A stretch of 47,794 nucleotides of DNA from Betaproteobacteria bacterium (GTDB taxonomy: Bacteria; Pseudomonadota; Gammaproteobacteria; Burkholderiales; SG8-41): NCBI GenBank assembly GCA_016192835.1, contig JACPTJ010000107.1:1-47794 (forward strand), written 5' to 3'. Of the stretch, positions 3,798 through 47,794 are shown one piece after another (within the stretch, counting starts at the first letter, position 1; the number at the start of each line of letters is the position of its first letter). The notes below the pieces were generated by a model that saw only the letters and a program-made list of their open reading frames with translations, was not told the origin of the DNA and did not search any database. The translations under genes were made by a program, and so were the position numbers.

Positions 3798-4952
3798 ATG
3801 GCCGTGAAGAACAATAACCGCTCGACCGTCACCATCGCTGCGGGCGGTGACGTGGGTACCGGGCACAAGCCGCCCGAAAGCGCGTTTACCCACGTCCTGG
3901 ACGCGCTGCGTGCGTCGGACATCAGCATTGCGCAGGTTGAAAAGCTGTACTCCGAACGCGGAACGTACCAGTACCAGAGCCTGGCTGAGAAGATTGAGGT
4001 GCGCCAGCCGCCGGCGAGCGCGGCGGCCTTCGCCAGCGTGCCATTCGACGTACTTTCGCTTGCATCCAATCACACCGGTGATTTCGGCCCGCAAGCGATC
4101 GAGGACACGCTGGACGTCTTCCACGAGCTCGGCATACCGACCGCGGGATTGGGCCGCAACATCGCGGAGGCGCGCAAACCGGTGATACTCGAAAGAAACG
4201 GCCTTCGCGTGGCGTTCCTTTCCTATTGCTCGGTACTGCTTCCCCAGTATTGGGCGGAGCAGGACCGGCCGGGTTGTGCGCCGATGCGCGCGCATACGTT
4301 CTACGAGCCGTATGAATTTCAGCCGGGATCGCCGCCGCGAGTCGTGACCATCCCGCATCAACAGGATTTCGAATTGCTGGTCGAGGACGTGCGCCGTGCA
4401 AGACAGGCCGCGGACGCGGTGGTCGTATCCCTCCACTGGGGTCTGCATTACGTCGCGAAGCCGTTTGCGTACCAGACCGCGGTTGCGCACGCAGCAATCG
4501 ATGCCGGCGCCTGCGCCATCCTGGGGCACCATCCGCATCAACTGCAGGGGATGGAGTTGTACAAGGACGCCGCTGTTTTCTACAGCCTGGGCAACCTGGC
4601 GTTCCACCGGCGCGGCGGCGGACCGGCCTATTGCATGCCGAACGGCGAGTATACGCACAAGGACGTGTATACTTTGAACGTCGATCCGGGGGTCACTTTC
4701 GACTACCGCCGGCACTGGAACGAGACTGGCATTGCGTACATCGAGCTCGACCATCTCGGGCTGAAGAAAGTGACCTATCTGCCGGCGCTGCTGAACGCGG
4801 CCGGCCAGCCCGAACCCGTGAACCGGGGACAGGCGCATTTCGAGACCATACGTACCTACCTCGAATGGGCGGCGGCGGACCTGCCGGGCGGCATCCGCGA
4901 GATCGGCGTTGAAGACGACCGCTATATCCTGTTCAACCGGGGTCGCGCCTAG
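3798..4952 (+). CDS. CapA/PGA_cap family metallophosphoesterase-like protein, paralog 1 (apparently cytoplasmic)
   Basis: 384-aa ORF with 'SLASNHTGDFG', 'VVVSLHWGLHY', 'ILGHHPHQLQG' and 'YSLGNL'. The N-terminus 'MAVKNNNRSTVTIAAGGDVGTGH' has no hydrophobic leader. Long runs are shared with 42910..44061 ('PPESAFTHV', 'EARKPVILE', 'YCSVLLPQ', 'VAHAAIDAGA', 'FHRRGGGPA'). Confidence 0.85.
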   Translation: MAVKNNNRSTVTIAAGGDVGTGHKPPESAFTHVLDALRASDISIAQVEKLYSERGTYQYQSLAEKIEVRQPPASAAAFASVPFDVLSLASNHTGDFGPQAIEDTLDVFHELGIPTAGLGRNIAEARKPVILERNGLRVAFLSYCSVLLPQYWAEQDRPGCAPMRAHTFYEPYEFQPGSPPRVVTIPHQQDFELLVEDVRRARQAADAVVVSLHWGLHYVAKPFAYQTAVAHAAIDAGACAILGHHPHQLQGMELYKDAAVFYSLGNLAFHRRGGGPAYCMPNGEYTHKDVYTLNVDPGVTFDYRRHWNETGIAYIELDHLGLKKVTYLPALLNAAGQPEPVNRGQAHFETIRTYLEWAAADLPGGIREIGVEDDRYILFNRGRA

Positions 4953-16237: not shown

Positions 16238-16476
16238 CCTGCCGCTCAGCTACCACCCGGTTCCCGACATCGCCTGAGCGCAGGGCGCGTTTGACTCGGC
16301 TCGCCCGGGGACTGCATAATTTGCCGCAACGTCCGTTGCGAAGTGCCCTGGCAGTGCAGATCGGGCGGGGGACACGCGCGGGTAGCCCCGATTACGCGAC
16401 ATCGGGCGCACCGAGCACCGATCCGGCATTACTGCACCGTTGCATTGGCGCAGGACGCCGGCGACGGGGGTATTGA
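16238..16476 (+). repeat. Solo copy of a ~240-bp IS-end-like repeat (copy 1); copy 2 is at 35085..35694 and a 52-nt inverted terminal copy is at 32115..32166
   Basis: Hand alignment with 35469..35686 gives about nine substitutions over ~220 nt. A central block (GGGGACTGCATAATTTGCCGCAACG...CATTACTGCACCGT) is identical. No credible ORF. Confidence 0.85.
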
Positions 16477-18330: not shown

Positions 18331-19989
18331 TCAATCAAGGCCGGTAAAGCTTACTACATTCATCGGCTCCTCGGTGAAGCTGCGATCGCGGCGGAGCCGC
18401 CCGACCATCGCCTCGACATATGGCGCAGCCGCACAGAGTTGCTGGAAATGTCCGTCGGCCAGCTTCAGACTCGCGCGCTTGCATCGGGCCGCGACCATAT
18501 CGCGTTGCGCCGGCGTCAACTCGTCTTTGTCAGGCTTGGGCACCGGCGGTAGTTCGGTCGAAAACGCCGCGTTCGGATCGAGCTTCGGACGCCTCTTGCG
18601 CCAGGGCGTCGCCTGCTCGTAGGCGTGTGCAGCACGCATTACCAGATCGTCCGCGAATGGTCGGCCGACGATCTGCATGGCGAGCGGTAAACCATCGTCG
18701 GTGAAGCCGATGCACTGCACCAGCGCGGGCCCGCCACTGACATTGAATGGGGTCGCCAACGAGTTTTTGCTCCAGAAGTTGATGGGACGCCATTCGCCGA
18801 GTGGCGTCGCCGGCCCCGGACCAGCTGTAATCAGCACGTCGTACTTCGGATACAGCTGCTCGAATTCGGCGATCATCACGCGCCGCTCGCGCAACGCCTG
18901 AACGTAGTCGGAGCCGTTGATTAGTACTGCGCCCAGGGCTCGGCCCAGGAAATCGTTACCGAAATCGCCGGACCGTTGGCGCAAGTTGTGTTCGTGAACC
19001 GCAAACAGCTCACACTCCGCAGTCGTCACCTTTACGTCTAGATACTCTCGTGCCGGACGGATGTGCACATCCTCGACGATGGCGCCGAGTGACCGGAATA
19101 CGCCCAGTGCCGTCTCAATCGCTTTCTTGAGTGTGTCGGTTACCTTTACGTCGTCTTCGTACAGGTGACGAATAACCCCGATCCGCAGGCCTTTAATGTC
19201 GTTGGTCAACGCGGCCCGATAATGGGAAACCGACTGGTCGGCGCTCGCCGGATCCTTCGGGTCGTGACCGGCCATCGCCTGCATCATGATGGCGCAGTCC
19301 TCGACCGACCAGGTCAGCGGCCCCGCATGGTCGTAAGTAAAGGAATTGGCGAACACGCCGTAGCGGCTAAGCAGCCCGTAGGTCGGCTTGAGACCGACCA
19401 GCCCGCACAGCGCAGCCGGGTTGCGGATCGACCCGCCGGTGTCGGAGCCCATCGCTCCCATCATGAAGCCGGCCGCGACGCCTGCGCCGGAGCCGCTCGA
19501 CGAGCCGCCGGTGAAATAATCGCGATTCCACGGGTTACGCGCCGGCGGCCAGGGTAGATCGAATGACGGACCGCCATGGGCGAATTCATGAGTTGACAGC
19601 TTGCCGAGCAGGATCGCGCCCGCGTCGTAGAGCTTCGCAACCGTTGTTGCATCGAATTTTGGAATATGATCTTTGCAAATTTTGGAATGGCAGGTCGTGG
19701 CGATTCCGTTGGTGCAGTAAATGTCCTTGAGACCGAACGGAATGCCGTGCATCGGCCCGCGATATTTGCCGGCGACGATCTCTTTCTCGGCTGCGCGCGC
19801 CTGGCCAAGCGCGAGGTCGGCAGTCACCGTAATGAAGGCGTTGAGTTGCGGATCCAGTGTCTCGATCCGACGCAGAAAGACTTCTGTCAGTTCGACTGGC
19901 GAGAGCTGCTTCCTCTCGATCAGCCGCGCGGCGTCTGCGATCGTCAGAAAGTGCAGATCCGTCGGGCTTGTCGTCGGTTCGTCATTCAT
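18331..19989 (-). CDS. Amidase-signature enzyme (GatA/AtzE-like) with a ~90-aa C-terminal extension resembling the free-standing small partner proteins
   Basis: 552 aa, GAGGAGG RBS. 'GIPFGLKDIY' and 'GGSSSGSGAGVAAG...GSDTGGSIRNPA' carry the Ser-cisSer-Lys signature. After 'AYEQATPWRKRRP' the tail continues as '...LTPAQRDMVAARCKRASLKLADGHFQQL...FTEEPMNVVSF'. Confidence 0.88.
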   Translation of the reverse strand: MNDEPTTSPTDLHFLTIADAARLIERKQLSPVELTEVFLRRIETLDPQLNAFITVTADLALGQARAAEKEIVAGKYRGPMHGIPFGLKDIYCTNGIATTCHSKICKDHIPKFDATTVAKLYDAGAILLGKLSTHEFAHGGPSFDLPWPPARNPWNRDYFTGGSSSGSGAGVAAGFMMGAMGSDTGGSIRNPAALCGLVGLKPTYGLLSRYGVFANSFTYDHAGPLTWSVEDCAIMMQAMAGHDPKDPASADQSVSHYRAALTNDIKGLRIGVIRHLYEDDVKVTDTLKKAIETALGVFRSLGAIVEDVHIRPAREYLDVKVTTAECELFAVHEHNLRQRSGDFGNDFLGRALGAVLINGSDYVQALRERRVMIAEFEQLYPKYDVLITAGPGPATPLGEWRPINFWSKNSLATPFNVSGGPALVQCIGFTDDGLPLAMQIVGRPFADDLVMRAAHAYEQATPWRKRRPKLDPNAAFSTELPPVPKPDKDELTPAQRDMVAARCKRASLKLADGHFQQLCAAAPYVEAMVGRLRRDRSFTEEPMNVVSFTGLD

Positions 19990-32079: not shown

Positions 32080-32114
32080 GAGTTCCTCCGTTCCAGGTTT
32101 TCCGTAGAAGACAT

Positions 32115-32166
32115 AGGAAAATCAATACACCCGTCGCCAGGGTTCTGTGCCAATGCAACGCTGCAG
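32115..32166 (+). repeat. 52-nt IS terminal repeat (left end), inverted relative to 35643..35694
   Basis: AGGAAAATCAATACACCCGTCGCC...CTGTGCCAATGCAACGCTGCAG matches the reverse complement of 35643..35694 at 43 of 52 positions (hand count). Confidence 0.75.
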
Positions 32167-35464: not shown

Positions 35465-35694
35465 CACCCGGTTCCCGACGTCGCCTGAACGCAGGGCGCG
35501 TTTGACTTGGCGCGCCCGGGGACTGCATAATTTGCCGCAACGTCCGTTGCGAAGTGCCCTGGCAGTGCAGATCGGGCGGGGGACACGCGCGGGTAGCCCC
35601 GATTACGCGACATCGGGCGCACCGAGCACCGATCCGGCATTACTGCACCGTCGCATTGGCACAGGGTGTCGGCGACGGGGGTATTGATTTTCCT
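35465..35694 (+). repeat. IS-end-like repeat, copy 2 (right portion; the left 20 nt are at 35085..35104 before the insertion)
   Basis: Near-identical to 16257..16476. It extends 8 nt further (..GTATTGATTTTCCT), which matches the inverted copy at 32115. Confidence 0.85.
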
Positions 35695-39908: not shown

Positions 39909-41273
39909 ATGACGGATACGACGATCGCGCGGATCGCAGACTTCGCGAACACGTTACAGTTTTCTGACATACCCGTACACGTATCACATGACTGCAAGAG
40001 GCGGCTGATAGACACTTTCGCTTGCGGTCTCGCTGCACACTATCAGCTGCCTTGTGGTATTGCGCGGAGCGTTGCGCTGCGCGTGAAGGTGCCAAATGGA
40101 TCGTATGTCTTGGGTACCGCGCTCAAAACTCTGCCGGAACTCGCGGCGTTCGCTAACGGTGTAATGGTGCGCTATCTGGACGGTAATGATGCCTATCCAG
40201 GTGGGGGAGGGCATCCGAGCGACGTGATCCCCGCTGTGCTGGCCGCAGCAAATATCAATAAGAGGTCCGGGAAGGATGTAATAACCGCCGTGACACTTGC
40301 GTACGAGGTCTTTTATAACTTTCGTCAGGCCGCCTGCATGCGTGACCGCGGCATGGATCATGTTTTCTATACTGCTGTTGGTAGTGCAATCGGCGCCGCG
40401 AGACTGATGTCACTAAGCCGGGAACAACTGGCGAACGCCATTTCGCTCGCAATTACTCCCAATATTGCTCTGCACGCGACACGGCGTGGACATCTCTCTA
40501 TGTGGAAAGGATGCGCGGCTGCGAATGCGGCTCGCAACGGCACATTCGCCGCCGTCCTTGCCGCCCAGGGCATGACTGGCCCCGACCATGCAATCGAAGG
40601 GTCACATGGGTTGCGAGAATTGGTAGGTAGCTTTGAATTTCCACCGTTGCCTGGTCCTGGGCGGCCATTTAAGCTTCCCGAAGCTCAAATGAAGTACTTC
40701 CTTTCAGAATCCCATTCGCATGCCCCCATCACTGCGGCGCTAGAACTGCATCGTCAGGTAACGGCCGATGACATCAAAGACATCACGATTTACACCTATT
40801 GGTTCGCGTGGAGCGAAATCGGCAGTGAAAGGGAGAAATGGCGGCCTGCCACTCGGGAAACCGCTGACCATAGTCTGCCGTACATCGTGGCTGCGGTGCT
40901 GTTAGATGGTCATTTTGGTGATGAAATATTCTCCGATGAGCGATTGCAGGATGAAAAGATTCATCGACTCGCTGATAAGATAATCGTCAAAGAGGATCCG
41001 GAATTATCGCGGCAATTTCCGGAAAAGTATCCCTGTCGGATTGAAATAACCACAAGAAGTGGAAATACGATAACAGCCAGCGTCGAGTATCCACGCGGTC
41101 ATCATAAGAATCCGATGACAGACGAGGAAGTAAGTGACAAATTCCGAAGCCTCGCTGGCCGAGTTCTACCCAAAAAACAAGTAGAGCAGGCGCTTACCTT
41201 GCTGTGGAAGATCGAAGAGGCATCCGATCTCGAACCGCTGTTTGAAATGGTGAACATCGACCGAAATACATGA
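39909..41273 (+). CDS. MmgE/PrpD family protein, paralog 4 (closest to paralog 3)
   Basis: 454 aa with 'FANGVMVRYLDGNDAYPGGGGHPSD' and 'TADHSLPYIVAAVLLDG'. It is visibly AT-richer than its neighbours in the 3' half. Confidence 0.88.
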   Translation: MTDTTIARIADFANTLQFSDIPVHVSHDCKRRLIDTFACGLAAHYQLPCGIARSVALRVKVPNGSYVLGTALKTLPELAAFANGVMVRYLDGNDAYPGGGGHPSDVIPAVLAAANINKRSGKDVITAVTLAYEVFYNFRQAACMRDRGMDHVFYTAVGSAIGAARLMSLSREQLANAISLAITPNIALHATRRGHLSMWKGCAAANAARNGTFAAVLAAQGMTGPDHAIEGSHGLRELVGSFEFPPLPGPGRPFKLPEAQMKYFLSESHSHAPITAALELHRQVTADDIKDITIYTYWFAWSEIGSEREKWRPATRETADHSLPYIVAAVLLDGHFGDEIFSDERLQDEKIHRLADKIIVKEDPELSRQFPEKYPCRIEITTRSGNTITASVEYPRGHHKNPMTDEEVSDKFRSLAGRVLPKKQVEQALTLLWKIEEASDLEPLFEMVNIDRNT

Positions 41274-41340
41274 ATGGCTAACCGCCCGCAGACTGGCCTA
41301 GCGCTCCTGCTGAACCAATAGCGGCAGGTGCCGCTGGCGC

Positions 41341-41793
41341 CACGCCGGGTTCTCGGCGCATCACGAGGTGAGCGTGACAGCCGAGGATGTCGAGGGGAGA
41401 AAGAAACTCGCCGGCTACATGCTGCGCGCTCCGATGTCCCTGGAGAAGTTGAGCTACGACGCGGCCACGGGCACGGTGATCTATCGCTCGAAGATGCATG
41501 CCGGCCTCAAGCGCAACTTCCAAGTCATGCCGGGCGTCGCGTGGTTGACGTTGCTCTGCGAACACATTCCCGACCGCTACGTGCGCCTGGTGCGTTATAT
41601 GGGGGTGTTACTCGAACCGCGCCCGGGGCGAGCGGGCAAAAACAGTTTTCACGCAAGCCGGTGCCGAGCGTGGAGCCGGCGACGGAATTTACGGCTCGCG
41701 CAAAAGCCGCTTGGGCGCGGCGCATTCGAAAAAAACGCTTCGGAGCCGCCGGGGTGCGGGAAAGAGCTTGCTTCGCTTTGGTGCCTGGAATAG
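41341..41793 (+). pseudogene. C-terminal fragment of an IS91-family (HUH/Y2) transposase
   Basis: In-frame 'HAGFSAHHEVSVTAEDVEGRKKLAGYMLRAPMSLEKLSYD...YRSK...LLCEHIPDRYVRLVRYMGVL' matches IS91-family C-terminal regions. There is no N-terminal or catalytic part. Confidence 0.7.
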
Positions 41794-41861
41794 ATTACTC
41801 GGTAATTTGGCATAGCATCAAAGAAACAATTCCAAGTTCGTGAAATCAGAGGAGGCGAAAA

Positions 41862-42839
41862 ATGTCCCGCCCGTCGTGCTGTTTTTCTGCTGCTGCATTG
41901 GTGGCTTTGGCAGGTTGGCCTTCCATAGCCGGTTCGCAGCAGTTTCCGGAAAGACCCGTTCGGATGATCGTGCCTTACCCGCCCGGCGGCGGTTCCGATC
42001 TGGTTGCGCGACTGATCGGCAAGGAACTCGCCGAAAAATGGGGCAAGTCCGTCATCATCGACAACAGGCCGGGCGGTGACGGGGCAATAGGCGCCGGCAT
42101 CGCCAGCACCACGCCCGCCGATGGGCATACGCTGCTCCAGATCATCCTGACGCATGCCGTGCTGCCCAGTATGAAGGATAGCCTGCCCTACGACCTGCTC
42201 CGGGACTTTGCGCCGATAACCCGCACGATGGATACCCCGAACCTCGTCGTGGTGCATCCTTCGCTGCCCGTGAATTCGATCAAGGAGCTAGTTGCGCTGG
42301 CGAAGCAGCAACCGGGCAAGGTGAACTACGCGATATCGGGCATCGGCGGCCCATCGCATCTCTCGGGCGAATTCTTCAACCAGCTTGCCGGCACGAAAAT
42401 GACGTACATCCCGTACAAAGGCGCGGGGCCGGCGATGATCGATCTGCTCGGTGGGCATGTGAAGCTCGCTTTCCCCACAGTCCCCAGCGGCATTCCGCAC
42501 GTGCGCTCCGGCAAGCTGCGCGCGCTCGCAATCACGAGCGCAACGCGGCTGCCGTTGTTGCCTGCCCTGCCCACCGTCGCAGAGGCGGGCGTCAAGGGAT
42601 ACGAATTTTCCGCGTGGTTTGGATTGGTCACCCGCGCGGGCACACCGCGCAGGGTGGTGGAGCAGCTCAATGCCGATATCACGTCGGTGCTCCACGCCGA
42701 GAATATCAGGACGGTCCTGATCAATGAGGGGGCCCAGGTCTTGAGCGACACCCCCAGGGAATTCACTGCATTCCTCGATGCCGAGCTGAAGCGGTGGGGG
42801 CGTCTGGTTAAGGAGGCAGGCTTGAAAGGCAAGGAATAG
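41862..42839 (+). CDS. Bug/TctC family periplasmic solute receptor
   Basis: AGAGGAGG RBS. 'SQQFPERPVRMIVPYPPGGGSD', 'IDNRPGGDG', 'YAISGIGGPSHL' and 'IPYKGAGPA'. Confidence 0.88.
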   Translation: MSRPSCCFSAAALVALAGWPSIAGSQQFPERPVRMIVPYPPGGGSDLVARLIGKELAEKWGKSVIIDNRPGGDGAIGAGIASTTPADGHTLLQIILTHAVLPSMKDSLPYDLLRDFAPITRTMDTPNLVVVHPSLPVNSIKELVALAKQQPGKVNYAISGIGGPSHLSGEFFNQLAGTKMTYIPYKGAGPAMIDLLGGHVKLAFPTVPSGIPHVRSGKLRALAITSATRLPLLPALPTVAEAGVKGYEFSAWFGLVTRAGTPRRVVEQLNADITSVLHAENIRTVLINEGAQVLSDTPREFTAFLDAELKRWGRLVKEAGLKGKE

Positions 42840-42909: not shown

Positions 42910-44061
42910 ATGGGGCAAGCGAAGAACGGCGGCGCATGCGTGACGCTGGCAGGCTGTGGTGACATAGGCACTGGACATACGCCTCCGGAGAGCGCGTTTA
43001 CCCATGTGGCCGACGCGTTGCGCCTAGCCGATTTCCGCTTCGCGCAGTGCGAGAAGTTGTATTCCGAGAAAAAGAACTACCAGGTGCACAGCGGCGCGCT
43101 GAATCTGGAGGCACTCAAGGCGCCGCAGACTGCGGCGGCGTTCAAAACCGTGCCGTTCAACGTCTTGTCGCTGGCCTCCAACCATATCGGAGACTGGGGA
43201 CCCGAGGCCGTCGAAGGCACGGTGGAAACGTTCCGCGCGCTGGGAATCCCCACCATCGGCGCCGGCCGCAACATCGACGAGGCGCGCAAGCCCGTCATTC
43301 TTGAAAAGAATGGCTTGAAGATCGGGTTCCTCGGGTATTGCTCGGTGCTGCTGCCGCAGTTCTGGGCGACGGAAAAACGCGCCGGCGCGGCGCCCCTGCG
43401 GGCGTACACCTATTACGAGCCGTACGAATACCAGCCGGGATCGCCCGCCCGCGTAATCACGGTCCCCGACAAAGACGACCTGGAGTACCTCGTCGAGGAC
43501 GTGCGGAAGCTGAAGCAGATGGTCAACGTCGTGGTCGTGTCCCTGCACTGGGGTCTGCACTATGTCACCCAGCCGCAGGACTACCAGCCTATCGTCGCCC
43601 ACGCCGCGATCGACGCCGGGGCCAGCGTCATACTCGGTCATCACGCCCACCAGCCCCAGGGGATAGAGATCTACAAGGGCGCGATCATCTTCTACAGCAT
43701 CGGCAACTTCGTGTTTCACCGCCGCGGGGGCGGCCCGGCCCCGTGTATGCCTGGCGAGAAATACACGCACAAGGAGATCTACTCGAAGGAGGTGGATCCC
43801 GGGCATTACTACGACTACCGCCGTCACTGGGCCGAAAGCGGCATTCCCTATCTGAAGCTCGACCGCGCCGGCCTGCGCGAAGCGACTTACCTGCCCACCT
43901 TCCTGGATGCGGAAGGGCGGCCGGAAATCCTGACGCTCGACAATCCCCAATTCGAAAAATCGCGCGTGTATCTCGAGTGGCTCGCAAAAGACGTCAACGG
44001 CGGGATCACGAATATTCCGGCCCGCGACGGGCGCTATTGTCTCTACGAGCGGAAGAGCTGA
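42910..44061 (+). CDS. CapA/PGA_cap family metallophosphoesterase-like protein, paralog 2
   Basis: AAAGGAGAAGG RBS. 383 aa with 'SLASNHIGDWG', 'VVVSLHWGLHY', 'ILGHHAHQPQG' and 'YSIGNF'. No signal peptide or anchor. Confidence 0.85.
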   Translation: MGQAKNGGACVTLAGCGDIGTGHTPPESAFTHVADALRLADFRFAQCEKLYSEKKNYQVHSGALNLEALKAPQTAAAFKTVPFNVLSLASNHIGDWGPEAVEGTVETFRALGIPTIGAGRNIDEARKPVILEKNGLKIGFLGYCSVLLPQFWATEKRAGAAPLRAYTYYEPYEYQPGSPARVITVPDKDDLEYLVEDVRKLKQMVNVVVVSLHWGLHYVTQPQDYQPIVAHAAIDAGASVILGHHAHQPQGIEIYKGAIIFYSIGNFVFHRRGGGPAPCMPGEKYTHKEIYSKEVDPGHYYDYRRHWAESGIPYLKLDRAGLREATYLPTFLDAEGRPEILTLDNPQFEKSRVYLEWLAKDVNGGITNIPARDGRYCLYERKS

Positions 44062-44210
44062 AAGCGGCGGGGGCGCGGCTGCACCGCTGCAAAATATTAT
44101 GGCACTACAAAACGATTTGCCGAACCACGTGCAATGAAATCCGGCACTTACGTGCGCTCACCTGCGGTTTTGGGGTGAATCATGTTAAAGATAGGTTAGA
44201 GCGGAGTTAT

Positions 44211-44375
44211 GAACCACTTGCCACGCACCGAGTATTTTCCCTGAGCGTTGCGTAGTATTATTCATTTCGGGCGCCGATGAAGTCTTTGGAACCTCGATCT
44301 TGCCAGCAATGGCCGCCCATCTCTACCCGATTCGGCGGTTAATCCCGCTCAGGCGGGGAGTTTTGCAAGAAGCTC
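44211..44375 (+). repeat. ~165-bp direct repeat, copy A (copy B is at 47240..47402)
   Basis: The 3' 107 nt (GGGCGCCGATGAAG...TTTTGCAAGAAGCTC) differ from copy B at 4 positions (hand count). The 5' ~55 nt are more diverged and contain indels. It ends 33 nt before the Bug ATG at 44409. Confidence 0.85.
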
Positions 44376-44408
44376 CCTTTTGAACACTACTTGACCATTG
44401 GAAATGCG

Positions 44409-45377
44409 ATGAAAACCTCCGCGAAAATCTGCCTGATGGCGGCGCTGCTGTTCGTATGGGGCTTGGCGCTGGCGCAAAATTACCCAACGCAGCCGATCCG
44501 CATGCTGGTGCCTTTCACGCCAGGCGGCGGCACGGACATTTCGGCTCGCGTCGTCGGGCAGAAAATGACCGAGGCACTCGGCCAGCAGATCGTCATCGAC
44601 AACCGCGTGGGGGCCTCCGGCCACATCGCAATGGAAATCACCGCGCGTGCAGCACCGAACGGCTATACGCTCATCATGAGCACCGTGGCCCCGATGGCGT
44701 TCAGCCCGGCCCTGTTTTCATCCTTGCCCTTCCATCCGGTCAAGGACTTCACGCCGGTGGCGCTCGTGTCCAGCACTGTCTTCGCGATCATTGTTCATCC
44801 CAGCCTGCCCGCGAAATCGGTCAAGGAGTTGATCGCGCTCGCGAAGGCGCAGCCGGGAAAGCTAACGTTCGGGTCGGGTGGAGCGGGCGGAGCATCGCAC
44901 ATTGCCACTGAGCTGTTTCAGTTGATGGCTGGAATCAATATGGTGCACGTGCCTTACAAAGGCGGCGGCGCGGCAATTCCCGCGGTGATGGGCGGTGAGG
45001 TCTTCCTGTATTTTGCAGACGTCATCGCGGCGCGGCAACTCGTCGCGGGCGGGAGGCTTCGCGCGCTCGGCGTCACCAGCGCACGCCGTTCGGCGATAAT
45101 GAGCGACTTGCCTACCATCGCCGAAGCGGGCCTGCCCGGCTACGAAATGACCTCCTGGAATGGCGTGCTCGCGCCGGCGGGCACGCCGCGTCCTATCGTC
45201 GACCGCCTCAATGCCGTGATCGTGCGCATTTTGCCGCTGCCGGATGTCGCGGAACGGCTCGCAGGGGACGGCAGCGAGTTCGGCAAGAACACGCCGGAGC
45301 AGTTCGCTGCTTTCGTGCGTTCTGAATACACCAAATGGCGCAAGATCATTCAAACCGCGAAGATCAAAATCGAGTGA
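44409..45377 (+). CDS. Bug/TctC family periplasmic solute receptor
   Basis: 'MKTSAKICLMAALLFVWGLALA' is followed by 'QNYPTQPIRMLVPFTPGGGTD'. Also 'IDNRVGASG' and 'VPYKGGGAA'. The track start is TTG 44391. Confidence 0.88.
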   Translation: MKTSAKICLMAALLFVWGLALAQNYPTQPIRMLVPFTPGGGTDISARVVGQKMTEALGQQIVIDNRVGASGHIAMEITARAAPNGYTLIMSTVAPMAFSPALFSSLPFHPVKDFTPVALVSSTVFAIIVHPSLPAKSVKELIALAKAQPGKLTFGSGGAGGASHIATELFQLMAGINMVHVPYKGGGAAIPAVMGGEVFLYFADVIAARQLVAGGRLRALGVTSARRSAIMSDLPTIAEAGLPGYEMTSWNGVLAPAGTPRPIVDRLNAVIVRILPLPDVAERLAGDGSEFGKNTPEQFAAFVRSEYTKWRKIIQTAKIKIE

Positions 45378-45405
45378 AGGAGCCGACGCGCGCGTCGCCG
45401 CAATC

Positions 45406-47052
45406 ATGACTGTCGACCTGGCTTTCATAAACATTGCCGAAGCAGCGCAGCTCATCGCTGCGCGCAAGCTGTCCCCCGTCGAGTACACCGATGCGCTGCT
45501 TGCGCGCATCGGAACGTTCGAGCCGCAGCTGAACGCTTTCATCACGATTACCGCCGACCTTGCGCGCACGCAGGCGCGACTGGCGGAAGCCGAAATCATG
45601 GCGGGCCGCTACCGCGGCCCGCTGCACGGCATACCGTTCGCGTTGAAAGACATCTACGACACCAGGGGAATACTCACCTCTGGCGGCTCCAAAGTCGGCC
45701 TCGGCAACATCCCGGCCAGGGACGCCACCACCACGCGGATGCTGAACGATGCCGGCGCGGTGCTGCTCGGCAAACTGCAGACGCACGAGTTCGCGCTCGG
45801 GGGGCCGTCGTTCGACCTTCCGTGGCCACCGTCGCGCAATCCGTGGCACCTCGAGCATTTCACCGGCGGATCAAGCAGCGGCTCCGGCGCGGCGCTCGCG
45901 GCGGGATTGATACCCGCGTCGCTCGGCTCCGACACCGGCGGCTCCATCCGCGGCCCGGCATCGTTTTGCGGTCTCGCCGGGCTGATGCCGACCTCGGGCT
46001 TGGTGAGCCGCGCCGGCGTGATTCCCAACTCGTTCACATTCGATCACTGCGGGCCGATGGCGCGCACGGTAGAAGACTGCGCAATCCTGCTGCAGGCGAT
46101 TGCCGGCTACGATCCACTGGACGCCGGTAGCATCCCGAGCGAGATCCCGAACTATCGCGCGGCGTTGAGCGGTGGCATAAAAGGGCTGCGCATCGGCGTG
46201 TTGCGCCACTACTGGGAAGAGGACTTTCCGACGCATCCCGATCTCAAGCGTGCGATGGAAGAAGCCATCGAAGTGTTCAAACAACTCGGTGCAGTAGTCG
46301 AGGACTGCCGCACGCGACCGCCGCGGGATTCGTTCGATACCAAGATCGTCATTGCAGAAAGCGAAATCTATTCGATCCACTACGCCAATCTGAAGTCGCG
46401 CCCCGGCGATTTCGGCCGCGACTTCCTCGGCCGCAGCTTGTTCGCGTGCCTGTTCCAGGCCTCCGACTATGTGCAGGCTTCGCGCGAGCATCGATGCATC
46501 ATTGCGGAGATGCGACCGCTTTACGAAAAATACGACGTGCTGCTCACCATAGGCTTCGGCCCCGCGCCGCGGCTGGACGAGCACAAGACTGCCAACTTCC
46601 TGCAGAAACCGCACGCTTTCACGCCAGCGAACGTGACCGGCGGCCCGTCGCTCGCGATTGCCAACGGTTTCAGCAACGGGCTGCCGCTGGGCATGCAGAT
46701 CATCGGACGGCCATTCGACGAGGCAACCGTGTTGCGCGTCGGCCATGCCTACCAACAGGCGACCGACTGGCACACGCGCCATCCGCGACTCGTGTCCGGT
46801 GCAGCGCAGCCCGCGGTCACGCCTAAGGGCAACGAACCGGTGGCAGCGGACCTCGATGCTGCGACGCGTGACTTCGTATTGAGTACCGCACGCCGCGCAG
46901 GTCTCAACCTCGACGAATATCAGGCAGCGATCTTGCTGGAAACTGCGCCGTTCGCTTTGGCCATTGCAGAGCGCGTGCGTAAACCGCGCAGCCGCTCGGA
47001 AGAACCGGCGCTCGTGTTTCGCTTTCCCAATACAGCTACACCCAGTGGCTGA
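45406..47052 (+). CDS. Amidase-signature enzyme (GatA/AtzE-like) with a ~95-aa C-terminal partner-like extension
   Basis: ATG 45406 gives 'MTVDLAFINIAEAAQLIAARKLSPVEY', collinear with the paralog N-termini. 'GIPFALKDIY' and 'GGSSSGSGAALAAG...GSDTGGSIRGPA'. The tail is '...LDAATRDFVLSTARRAGLNLDEYQAAILL...RSEEPALVFRF'. The track ORF start 45244 overlaps the Bug gene. Confidence 0.88.
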   Translation: MTVDLAFINIAEAAQLIAARKLSPVEYTDALLARIGTFEPQLNAFITITADLARTQARLAEAEIMAGRYRGPLHGIPFALKDIYDTRGILTSGGSKVGLGNIPARDATTTRMLNDAGAVLLGKLQTHEFALGGPSFDLPWPPSRNPWHLEHFTGGSSSGSGAALAAGLIPASLGSDTGGSIRGPASFCGLAGLMPTSGLVSRAGVIPNSFTFDHCGPMARTVEDCAILLQAIAGYDPLDAGSIPSEIPNYRAALSGGIKGLRIGVLRHYWEEDFPTHPDLKRAMEEAIEVFKQLGAVVEDCRTRPPRDSFDTKIVIAESEIYSIHYANLKSRPGDFGRDFLGRSLFACLFQASDYVQASREHRCIIAEMRPLYEKYDVLLTIGFGPAPRLDEHKTANFLQKPHAFTPANVTGGPSLAIANGFSNGLPLGMQIIGRPFDEATVLRVGHAYQQATDWHTRHPRLVSGAAQPAVTPKGNEPVAADLDAATRDFVLSTARRAGLNLDEYQAAILLETAPFALAIAERVRKPRSRSEEPALVFRFPNTATPSG

Positions 47053-47239
47053 TGATCGCGACCGGAAAGCAGTGCCCTTTGTAGGGGTTGGCAGGCAAGA
47101 CACAATGCGAGATATTCGTCGCCCCATCAAATCACGATGGCGGCAAGTTGACAATGCCATTCCAGCGTATGAACCATCTTCTCCAGTTCCCGTGTCAGCG
47201 AACCCACTTTCGATTTCAATTCAGGCATCAACTCATCCT

Positions 47240-47402
47240 GAACCACTTGCCACTGAAAGTTGCATTTTCCCTGAGCGTTGCGTAGCATTCGTCTCGGGCG
47301 CCGATGAAGTCTTTGGAAACTCGATCTTGCCAGCAATGGCCGCCAATCTCTATCCGATTCGGTGGTTAATCCCGCTCAGGCGGGGAGTTTTGCAAGAAGC
47401 TC
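47240..47402 (+). repeat. ~165-bp direct repeat, copy B
   Basis: See copy A. It ends 47 nt before the ATG at 47450 of the next MmgE/PrpD gene. Confidence 0.85.
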
Positions 47403-47449
47403 AATAATAAATAAGTCTTCTGATTAAATTGTTCGCAAGGTAGATATTC

Positions 47450-47794
47450 ATGAATTTATCGACGTCCCGGACCCCTGGCATACATCCCGATCATGGGAAG
47501 AAAGGCGGTATTACAACCATGGGACCCTCAGACGCTCAAACCACAATCAGAGTTGCCGAACTGGTTTGTAAAACGAAGCTGAATCAGATCCCCCGCGAAG
47601 TGATTGACTACAGCAAGAGTCTGGCCCTCAGCGCCCTTGGCGGCATGGTATCAGGCGCACAAATTCCCAGCTGCAAGATCGTCACTCGATACGTCCAGCG
47701 TATGGGGGGGAACCAGGAGGCCACCGTAGCCGCCTCCGGCTTCAAGACTTCTGTCGAGAACGCTGCCTTGGCCAACAGCCATTTCGCCCACACC
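47450..47794 (+). CDS. MmgE/PrpD family protein, paralog 5, 3'-truncated by window edge (not in the ORF track)
   Basis: My translation from ATG 47450 is 'MNLSTSRTPGIHPDHGKKGGITTMGPSDAQTTIRVAELVCKTKLNQIPREVIDYSKSLALSALGGMVSG...ENAALANSHFAHT', open to the window end. It carries the typical MmgE/PrpD N-terminus. The true start may be ATG 47519. Confidence 0.75.
   Translation, partial: MNLSTSRTPGIHPDHGKKGGITTMGPSDAQTTIRVAELVCKTKLNQIPREVIDYSKSLALSALGGMVSGAQIPSCKIVTRYVQRMGGNQEATVAASGFKTSVENAALANSHFAHT

Follow-up and report, generated by a model that had tools for sequence, protein, structure and literature searches.

Two direct repeats near the end of contig JACPTJ010000107.1, from a Betaproteobacteria bacterium, raise the question of why unrelated genes should begin behind the same 165 nt of DNA. 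The repeats lie at 44211-44375 (copy A) and 47240-47402 (copy B) of the window, by which we mean the whole stretch of 47,794 nt analyzed here. The window is the entire contig C58 of a metagenome-assembled genome (MAG; 586 contigs, 86% complete), and the MmgE/PrpD gene behind copy B is therefore truncated at the contig end. Behind copy A lie a Bug/TctC solute-receptor gene and an amidase gene. An earlier note, made from the letters of this contig, had offered three readings, namely a shared promoter, operator or leader RNA, the scar of a cassette insertion that duplicated the leader, or a substrate for recombinational loss or amplification of the segment between the repeats. Our analysis indicates that both repeats are almost certainly solo left-end relics of an insertion sequence (IS) of the IS1182 family resembling ISUnCu17, and that they lie antisense to the Bug and PrpD genes.

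The geometry that the earlier note described was largely reproduced. BLAST aligns the two copies at 90% identity over 165 nt (E 2e-57), exactly 4 differences fall within the 3' 107 nt, the small indels being confined to the 5' part, and both copies carry the stem CCCGC-TCAG-GCGGG followed by GAGTTTTGCAAGAAGCTC. The repeat ends stand 33 nt (copy A, ATG at 44409) and 47 nt (copy B, ATG at 47450) from the start codons. The extents required correction: a covariance model (CM) moved the start of copy A out to 44208, the corresponding homology region of copy B is 47237-47402, and homology of copy B to the parent element described below reaches 83 nt further upstream, to 47157.

Left ends of an IS1182-family insertion sequence

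The CM, built from the repeat copies, was run on 150 genomes of the order (Burkholderiales). Matches were obtained in five other families, and one genome, G138 (2 Mb in 3 contigs, nearly complete), holds three identical copies in which conservation also covers sequence upstream of the repeat. Inspection of one of these copies reveals a 1426-bp element that interrupts a permease gene and is flanked by a CTTT target duplication. Its 16-nt inverted repeats, GAGGCTCTTGCAAAAC and GAGCTTCTTGCAAAAT, match at 14 of 16 positions, and its open reading frame (ORF) of 367 aa starts within the repeat, on its other strand (MNTTQRNGIMQRWNVIQHELMPELRDE...), and carries the domains DUF772 and DDE_Tnp_1 of a DDE transposase. 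The best NCBIfam model for this transposase is IS1182, whose score of 95.8 bits falls well short of the cut-off of 270; IS5 models score 49-60 bits. The protein is 65% identical to RefSeq proteins named 'IS1182-like element ISUnCu17 family transposase', and relatives at 53-65% identity carry RefSeq names of the IS1182 family or of ISUnCu17. Burkholderiales genomes other than the present one thus contain intact elements, complete with inverted repeats at both ends and a target duplication of 4 bp, and a complete 1414-bp copy with a frameshifted transposase is present in a congener, the groundwater MAG G011 (G011:C67:15305-16718). The parent element, 1.41-1.43 kb in size, is probably a new member of the IS1182 family.

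Comparison with ISUnCu17 (IS1182 family; Aeromonas caviae plasmid NZ_AP026405.1, KC964606.1) defines both the kinship and its limits. Over its full length, the transposase encoded by the intact relatives shows 65% identity to that of ISUnCu17, and the two elements share terminal inverted repeats (GAGCYTCTTGCAAAA), a 4-bp target duplication and the transposase N-terminus MN(A/T)TQR. In contrast, identity of 65% marks a different IS of the family, and the window retains only the first 165-242 nt, with neither the transposase nor the right end. ISUnCu17 itself lies inside a class 1 integron of the IncP A. caviae plasmid (locus L097, NZ_AP026405.1 24412-27972), between qacEdelta1 and aac(6')-Ib and with an ATGA target duplication.

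The left end of the parent element is each window repeat read on the minus strand (Table 1). There is little doubt that each relic retains the terminal inverted repeat, the ~105-nt 5' untranslated region (5'UTR) of the transposase gene and the first transposase codons (19 in relic A, 44 in relic B), the remainder having been deleted. The terminal inverted repeat GAGCTTCTTGCAAAAC is present in each relic and recurs at either end of the intact copies in G138, in G011 and in ISUnCu17. Relics A and B are each 88.6% identical to the full copy in G011, over its positions 1-160 and 1-242, respectively. Six-frame translation aligns the N-terminus in relic A with the intact transposase MNTTQRNGIMQRWNVIQHEL.., while tblastn places transposase residues 12-44 on the minus strand of relic B at 47255-47157. 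The last of the hairpins discussed below thereby corresponds to the terminal inverted repeat, the supposed 'leader' to the transposase 5'UTR, and the motif TAGTAT to the antisense of transposase codons 2-4.

Table 1. Positions of the relics, their parts and the genes behind them in the window, with the parts of the IS named according to the reading given in the text.
Feature	Position	Strand	Basis or remark
Relic A, left end (about positions 1-165) of the IS	44208-44375	-	terminus at 44375, towards the Bug gene; CM 183.5 bits
Relic B, left end (positions 1-242) of the IS	47157-47402	-	terminus at 47402, towards the MmgE/PrpD gene
Left terminal inverted repeat (IRL), relic A	44358-44375		GAGTTTTGCAAGAAGCTC, reverse complement of GAGCTTCTTGCAAAACTC
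Left terminal inverted repeat (IRL), relic B	47385-47402		same basis as in relic A
Subterminal hairpin CCCGC-TCAG-GCGGG, relic A	44344-44357		read from sequence
Subterminal hairpin CCCGC-TCAG-GCGGG, relic B	47371-47384		read from sequence
Dead transposase N-terminus, relic A	44208-44265	-	MNNTTQRSGKILGAWQVV.., about 19 codons, one codon inserted
Dead transposase N-terminus, relic B	47157-47292	-	start codon ACG, 4-nt insertion, then MPELKSKVGSLTRELEKMVHTLEW (residues about 21-44), where homology stops
Outward promoter-like site TTGCAT-17 nt-TAGCAT, relic B	47260-47288	+	antisense to transposase start
Counterpart in relic A, GAGTAT-17-TAGTAT	44230-44258		-35 lost
Bug/TctC solute-receptor gene, behind relic A	44409-45377	+	Pfam TctC, 233 bits
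Amidase gene with C-terminal extension, 548 aa, second gene behind relic A	45406-47052	+	Pfam Amidase, 323 bits
MmgE/PrpD-family gene, truncated by contig end, behind relic B	47450-47794	+	Pfam MmgE_PrpD_N, 50 bits

The earlier note had stated that no frame is open in both copies. Six-frame translation identifies one, on the plus strand (..FPERCV..SGADEVFG..ILPAMAA.LYPIR.LIPLRRGVLQEA). Across 12 copies, substitutions in this frame fall 31/27/33 by codon position; this absence of 3-nt periodicity indicates that the frame is not coding, and the true coding remnant of the repeats is on the minus strand.

BLAST and tblastn searches of this genome's assembly returned N-terminal and left-end pieces only, with no transposase body, no right end and no other part of the element. 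Neither a second inverted repeat nor a target duplication was found for the window copies, each of which has one terminus only. A miniature inverted-repeat transposable element (MITE) was rejected on these grounds. A MITE-like derivative of 74 nt does occur in G011 (locus L031, G011:C69, ~4239-4315), 62 nt before an SDR gene; it carries both inverted repeats and is built of GAGCTTCCTGCAAAACT, ~40 nt of left-end sequence and then AGTTTTGCAAGAAGCTC.

Placement of the relics and the outward promoter question

The search for further copies that the earlier note had proposed, together with a survey of the genes behind them, located such copies in the same genome and among its congeners, before unrelated gene families. 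The genome holds three partial copies in addition to the two full copies A and B. In G011, copies of 140-165 nt number at least 10, with identities of 85-94%, and are accompanied by shorter pieces. One or two copies occur in each of three other congeners, and the element is absent from 24 of the genus's 29 genomes. A co-oriented gene begins 0-225 nt downstream of nearly every copy, and Pfam searches identify these genes as real members of unrelated families, namely TctC, TctB, MmgE/PrpD, CoA-transferase III, enoyl-CoA hydratase, PGA_cap, SDR and FAD oxidoreductase. When aligned, the copies share a sharp 3' edge (...GAAGCTC) and have ragged 5' edges.

This arrangement raises the question of whether the relics have been retained for a function. 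The consensus of the copies contains TTGCAT-17 nt-TAGTAT, the sole sigma-70-like pair on the outward strand, followed by ~105 nt, and the pair is retained with a 17-18-nt spacer in seven of eight distinct distant copies, the -10 being lost in the copy at locus L088. We propose that this promoter-like site would read outward from the left end of the IS, on the strand opposite the transposase start. While the element is intact, its product would be an antisense transcript over the transposase 5'UTR, comparable to RNA-OUT. In a decayed element the transcript would pass through the inverted repeat into the adjoining gene and supply it with a promoter and a 5'UTR, and relics would persist before genes because the IS end reads outward.

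Such placement could also be that of neutral debris from the same IS. The bias would then arise because the IS inserts into intergenic DNA close to promoters, possibly favouring one orientation, and because deletions are barred from entering the neighbouring gene. We regard this as a serious possibility that falls somewhat short of an even chance. It does not readily account for a bias that depends on the state of the element: of the 18 evaluable relics that have lost their transposase, 16 point at the start of a co-oriented ORF no more than 260 nt away (binomial P = 7e-4, with one half as the expectation in this and the following test), whereas among copies with some transposase sequence left the figure is 2 of 6. 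All 11 relics of at least 143 nt face such a start (5e-4). Relics of the left terminus outnumber those of the right by 13:2 in G011, and the inner breakpoints of the longer relics gather at 143-172 nt, just past the -35-like TTGCAT, with a second group retaining 37-57 nt. A relic reduced to the promoter-like part, found at orthologous sites in two genomes of a different genus (L084, G069:C11:60782-60850, and L090, G123:C172:3888-3956), is 97.1% identical, compared with 82-88% in the flanking non-coding DNA and 90.6% in the downstream ORF (P = 0.002), and lies in both before the same 451-aa gene, which again is not what neutral decay would lead one to expect.

Taken together, the orientation bias, the excess of left termini, the breakpoint cluster and the conservation of the orthologous pair make selective retention as an outward promoter or 5'UTR plausible, with the scales standing about level. 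The combined statement, that the repeats are IS ends and have been retained in this role, is one we hold with evenly divided confidence, reading as we do from sequence comparison. A broader version holds that the left end carries an RNA-OUT-like antisense promoter, that purifying selection has repeatedly kept it, once the transposase had decayed, as a portable promoter and 5'UTR for Bug-type catabolic operons, and that a sizeable share of the operon promoters of this uncultured betaproteobacterial genus is derived from transposons. This would extend the proposal considerably, and we offer it tentatively, leaning towards doubt.

Several points weigh against retention. Of the 12 positions of the sigma-70 consensus, the pair TTGCAT-17-TAGTAT matches 7; it was missed by a standard promoter scan, and copy A no longer has its -35; a weak match and a damaged copy are what neutral debris would be expected to present. 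Copy B retains the site; with the -35 of copy A lost, the Bug-amidase operon may rely on another promoter. Conservation of the site in intact copies may be explained by the transposase codons that it overlaps (MNTTQR..IMQRW). Substitutions are spread evenly along the relics, with the hexamers not conserved more sharply than the rest, which likewise suits neutral decay. Two or three right-end relics in G011 also appear to face ORF starts, such that an insertion-site preference or constraints on deletion fit as well as selection does. Other IS debris lying before genes abounds in the genus, moreover, the probable IS91-type ends at 16254-16476 and 35465-35687 being examples. The conservation test consists of a single orthologous pair of 69 nt, and the relics of a single genome may partly depend on one another.

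Two other promoter readings were set aside by eye. A sigma-54 promoter in GGCGGGGAGTTTTGCA was rejected because its GG-GC spacing is 11 and varies among copies, and a hybrid promoter using the TTGCAA of the inverted repeat as its -35 found no consistent -10 in the flanks.

Outward transcription from IS ends has precedents. Complete outward promoters have been described in 40 ISs (PMC9208149), and IS481 carries an outward promoter, Pout, in Bordetella pertussis (PMC11774165). The relics resemble these cases in that an IS end lies directly upstream of a host gene and reads towards it, in having a betaproteobacterium as host, and in that the element may supply the gene's promoter. The difference is that those promoters were mapped experimentally in intact elements, while the candidate here is a 7/12 match in decayed solo ends. 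The pOUT promoter of IS10 RNA-OUT and art200 of IS200 (PMC5006887, PMC4513863) offer a second comparison, the candidate promoter being likewise antisense to the transposase start and directed across the 5'UTR towards the IS end. This resemblance is one of layout; the IS families are unrelated, and an antisense RNA in the IS1182 family is here only a proposal.

The earlier note had held that its reading would fail if the core were simply part of a widespread IS or repetitive extragenic palindromic (REP) family with no positional bias relative to start codons. Membership of a widespread IS family is borne out for the core, but its decayed copies are strongly biased towards start codons. The suggestion of a shared promoter or leader survives to the extent that both genes stand behind the same kind of transposon end; of a dedicated operator or riboswitch there is no sign, Rfam giving no match and covariation being weak.

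Leader RNA and mobile cassette as alternatives

A dedicated cis-regulatory leader RNA (a riboswitch or attenuator), or a small RNA gene, of a Bug-type catabolic regulon unrelated to mobile DNA would also place one sequence before many genes, and the ~105-nt region can indeed be drawn as two or three hairpins. As the origin of the repeats this is refuted by their identity with the end of a transposase-bearing element, and we consider it extremely improbable. The last of its hairpins is the terminal inverted repeat, and the first two helices are lost in distant intact copies, in which the subterminal hairpin is not retained either. A permissive Rfam search of 43900-47794 gave no match in the repeats. 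The test of the core for covariation that the earlier note had recommended had a divided outcome: covariation did not exceed that of shuffles in 12 close, near-identical copies, while in a model-fitted alignment of 26 distinct copies 8 cells were changed on both sides against 1.6 expected, and paired cells and double changes thus stood above shuffles. This signal, which a structured RNA would be expected to leave, is weak and comes largely from the divergent copy L059, where CCCGC/GCGGG has become TCTGT/ACAGA by three compensatory pairs, plus two further single cells. The 24 genomes of the genus that lack the element are, like the remaining five, all Bug-rich, which again speaks against a leader of a Bug regulon. 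A first look at the genus gives ~200-1000 candidate Bug/TctC genes per genome; in view of this extreme expansion, a Bug gene beside any intergenic element is expected by chance.

The proposal that a cassette insertion duplicated the leader finds no support, the repeat being the left end of an IS1182-family element found at ~25 unrelated loci in several genomes. Copies A and B probably go back to separate insertions of one local IS lineage, since decayed, and do not mark the borders of a mobile cassette. That they come from one local lineage follows from substitutions which the two have in common and the G011 copies lack, CCTCGATC and CCCGATTC among them.

These shared substitutions, in two co-oriented relics 3.0 kb apart, would also be expected of a composite transposon, in which two full IS copies in direct orientation once moved the Bug and amidase genes together and then decayed to left ends. 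The amidase orthologues in congeners (75-84% aa identity) have different gene neighbours, as such mobility would predict, and G011:C67 likewise carries two co-oriented copies, 8 kb apart. We nevertheless judge a composite transposon unlikely: the 3-kb segment has no compositional break, no target duplication is recoverable, no second IS-flanked Bug-amidase pair was found, the paralogous amidase on C386 has no adjoining relic, and relics are common enough for two neighbours to arise independently. The Bug gene has its best relative at 66% and no close orthologue among the hundreds of Bug genes per genome, and no orthologous locus was found in the relatives searched. As for the third of the earlier readings, two 165-nt repeats that are 90% identical could in principle recombine.

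The repeats are a familiar kind of transposon scar, and they represent no new regulon leader, riboswitch or cassette system. The locus illustrates how, in metagenome-assembled genomes, what looks like a 'conserved leader' can turn out to be the tip of a transposon whose parent has vanished from the assembly. For annotation, 44208-44375 and 47157-47402 are to be labelled as IS remnants. If the outward promoter is real, an IS1182-family case would join the insertion sequences that rewire host gene expression, and decayed IS ends might be a routine source of promoters for the expanded Bug-receptor operons of the genus.

Probable IS91-type debris and other observations

A second dispersed repeat family occurs in the window at 16254-16476 and 35465-35687 (96% identical to each other), with a partial inverted copy at 32108-32166. 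The genome contains more than 15 partial copies of it, and the family ends ...GGGGGTATTGATTTTCC just before genes. On contig C61, a Y2 transposase is followed by a similar tail that ends ...GATTGATTTTCC before a Bug gene, and one copy of the family in G011 comes directly after a C-terminal piece of a transposase. The second family looks like the tail of an IS91-type element.

An IS91/ISCR oriIS end was considered for the repeats at 44211 and 47240 and rejected. The Y2 HUH transposase loci of the genome have no similarity to the repeat, which joins a DDE transposase in the opposite orientation. The presumed oriIS-end relics of the second family resemble relics A and B in being decayed single IS ends before unrelated genes, possibly portable promoters. 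In contrast to that rolling-circle HUH system, the parent of relics A and B has two inverted repeats and is a DDE element of the cut-and-paste or copy-paste kind, and what survives of it is the end on the 5' side of the transposase rather than an origin end.

Two short sequences are common to both kinds of debris. The 12-mer CACCGTTGCATT occurs in the second repeat family and in the IS1182-type relic. The 14-mer TAATCCCGCTCAAG, the arm of the subterminal hairpin in two copies of the IS1182-type end, is also present in the IS91-type tail of contig C61 (G000:C61), after the Y2 transposase on the reverse strand at ~18650-18680 of the reversed contig, with ~0.04 chance matches expected in the genome.

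Within the window itself, a fragment of an IS91-family Y2 transposase lies at 41338-41613 (ORF 41328-41843, plus strand; Pfam Y2_Tnp, 27.5 bits). It is situated between the MmgE/PrpD gene at 39909-41273 and a Bug gene at 41862, placing IS debris directly before that Bug gene. Base composition sets two PrpD-family genes apart from their surroundings: G+C is 0.48-0.55 in the gene behind copy B (47200-47794) and in that at 39909-41273 (40600-41200), compared with 0.58-0.70 in their neighbours, which hints at a foreign origin of the two genes.

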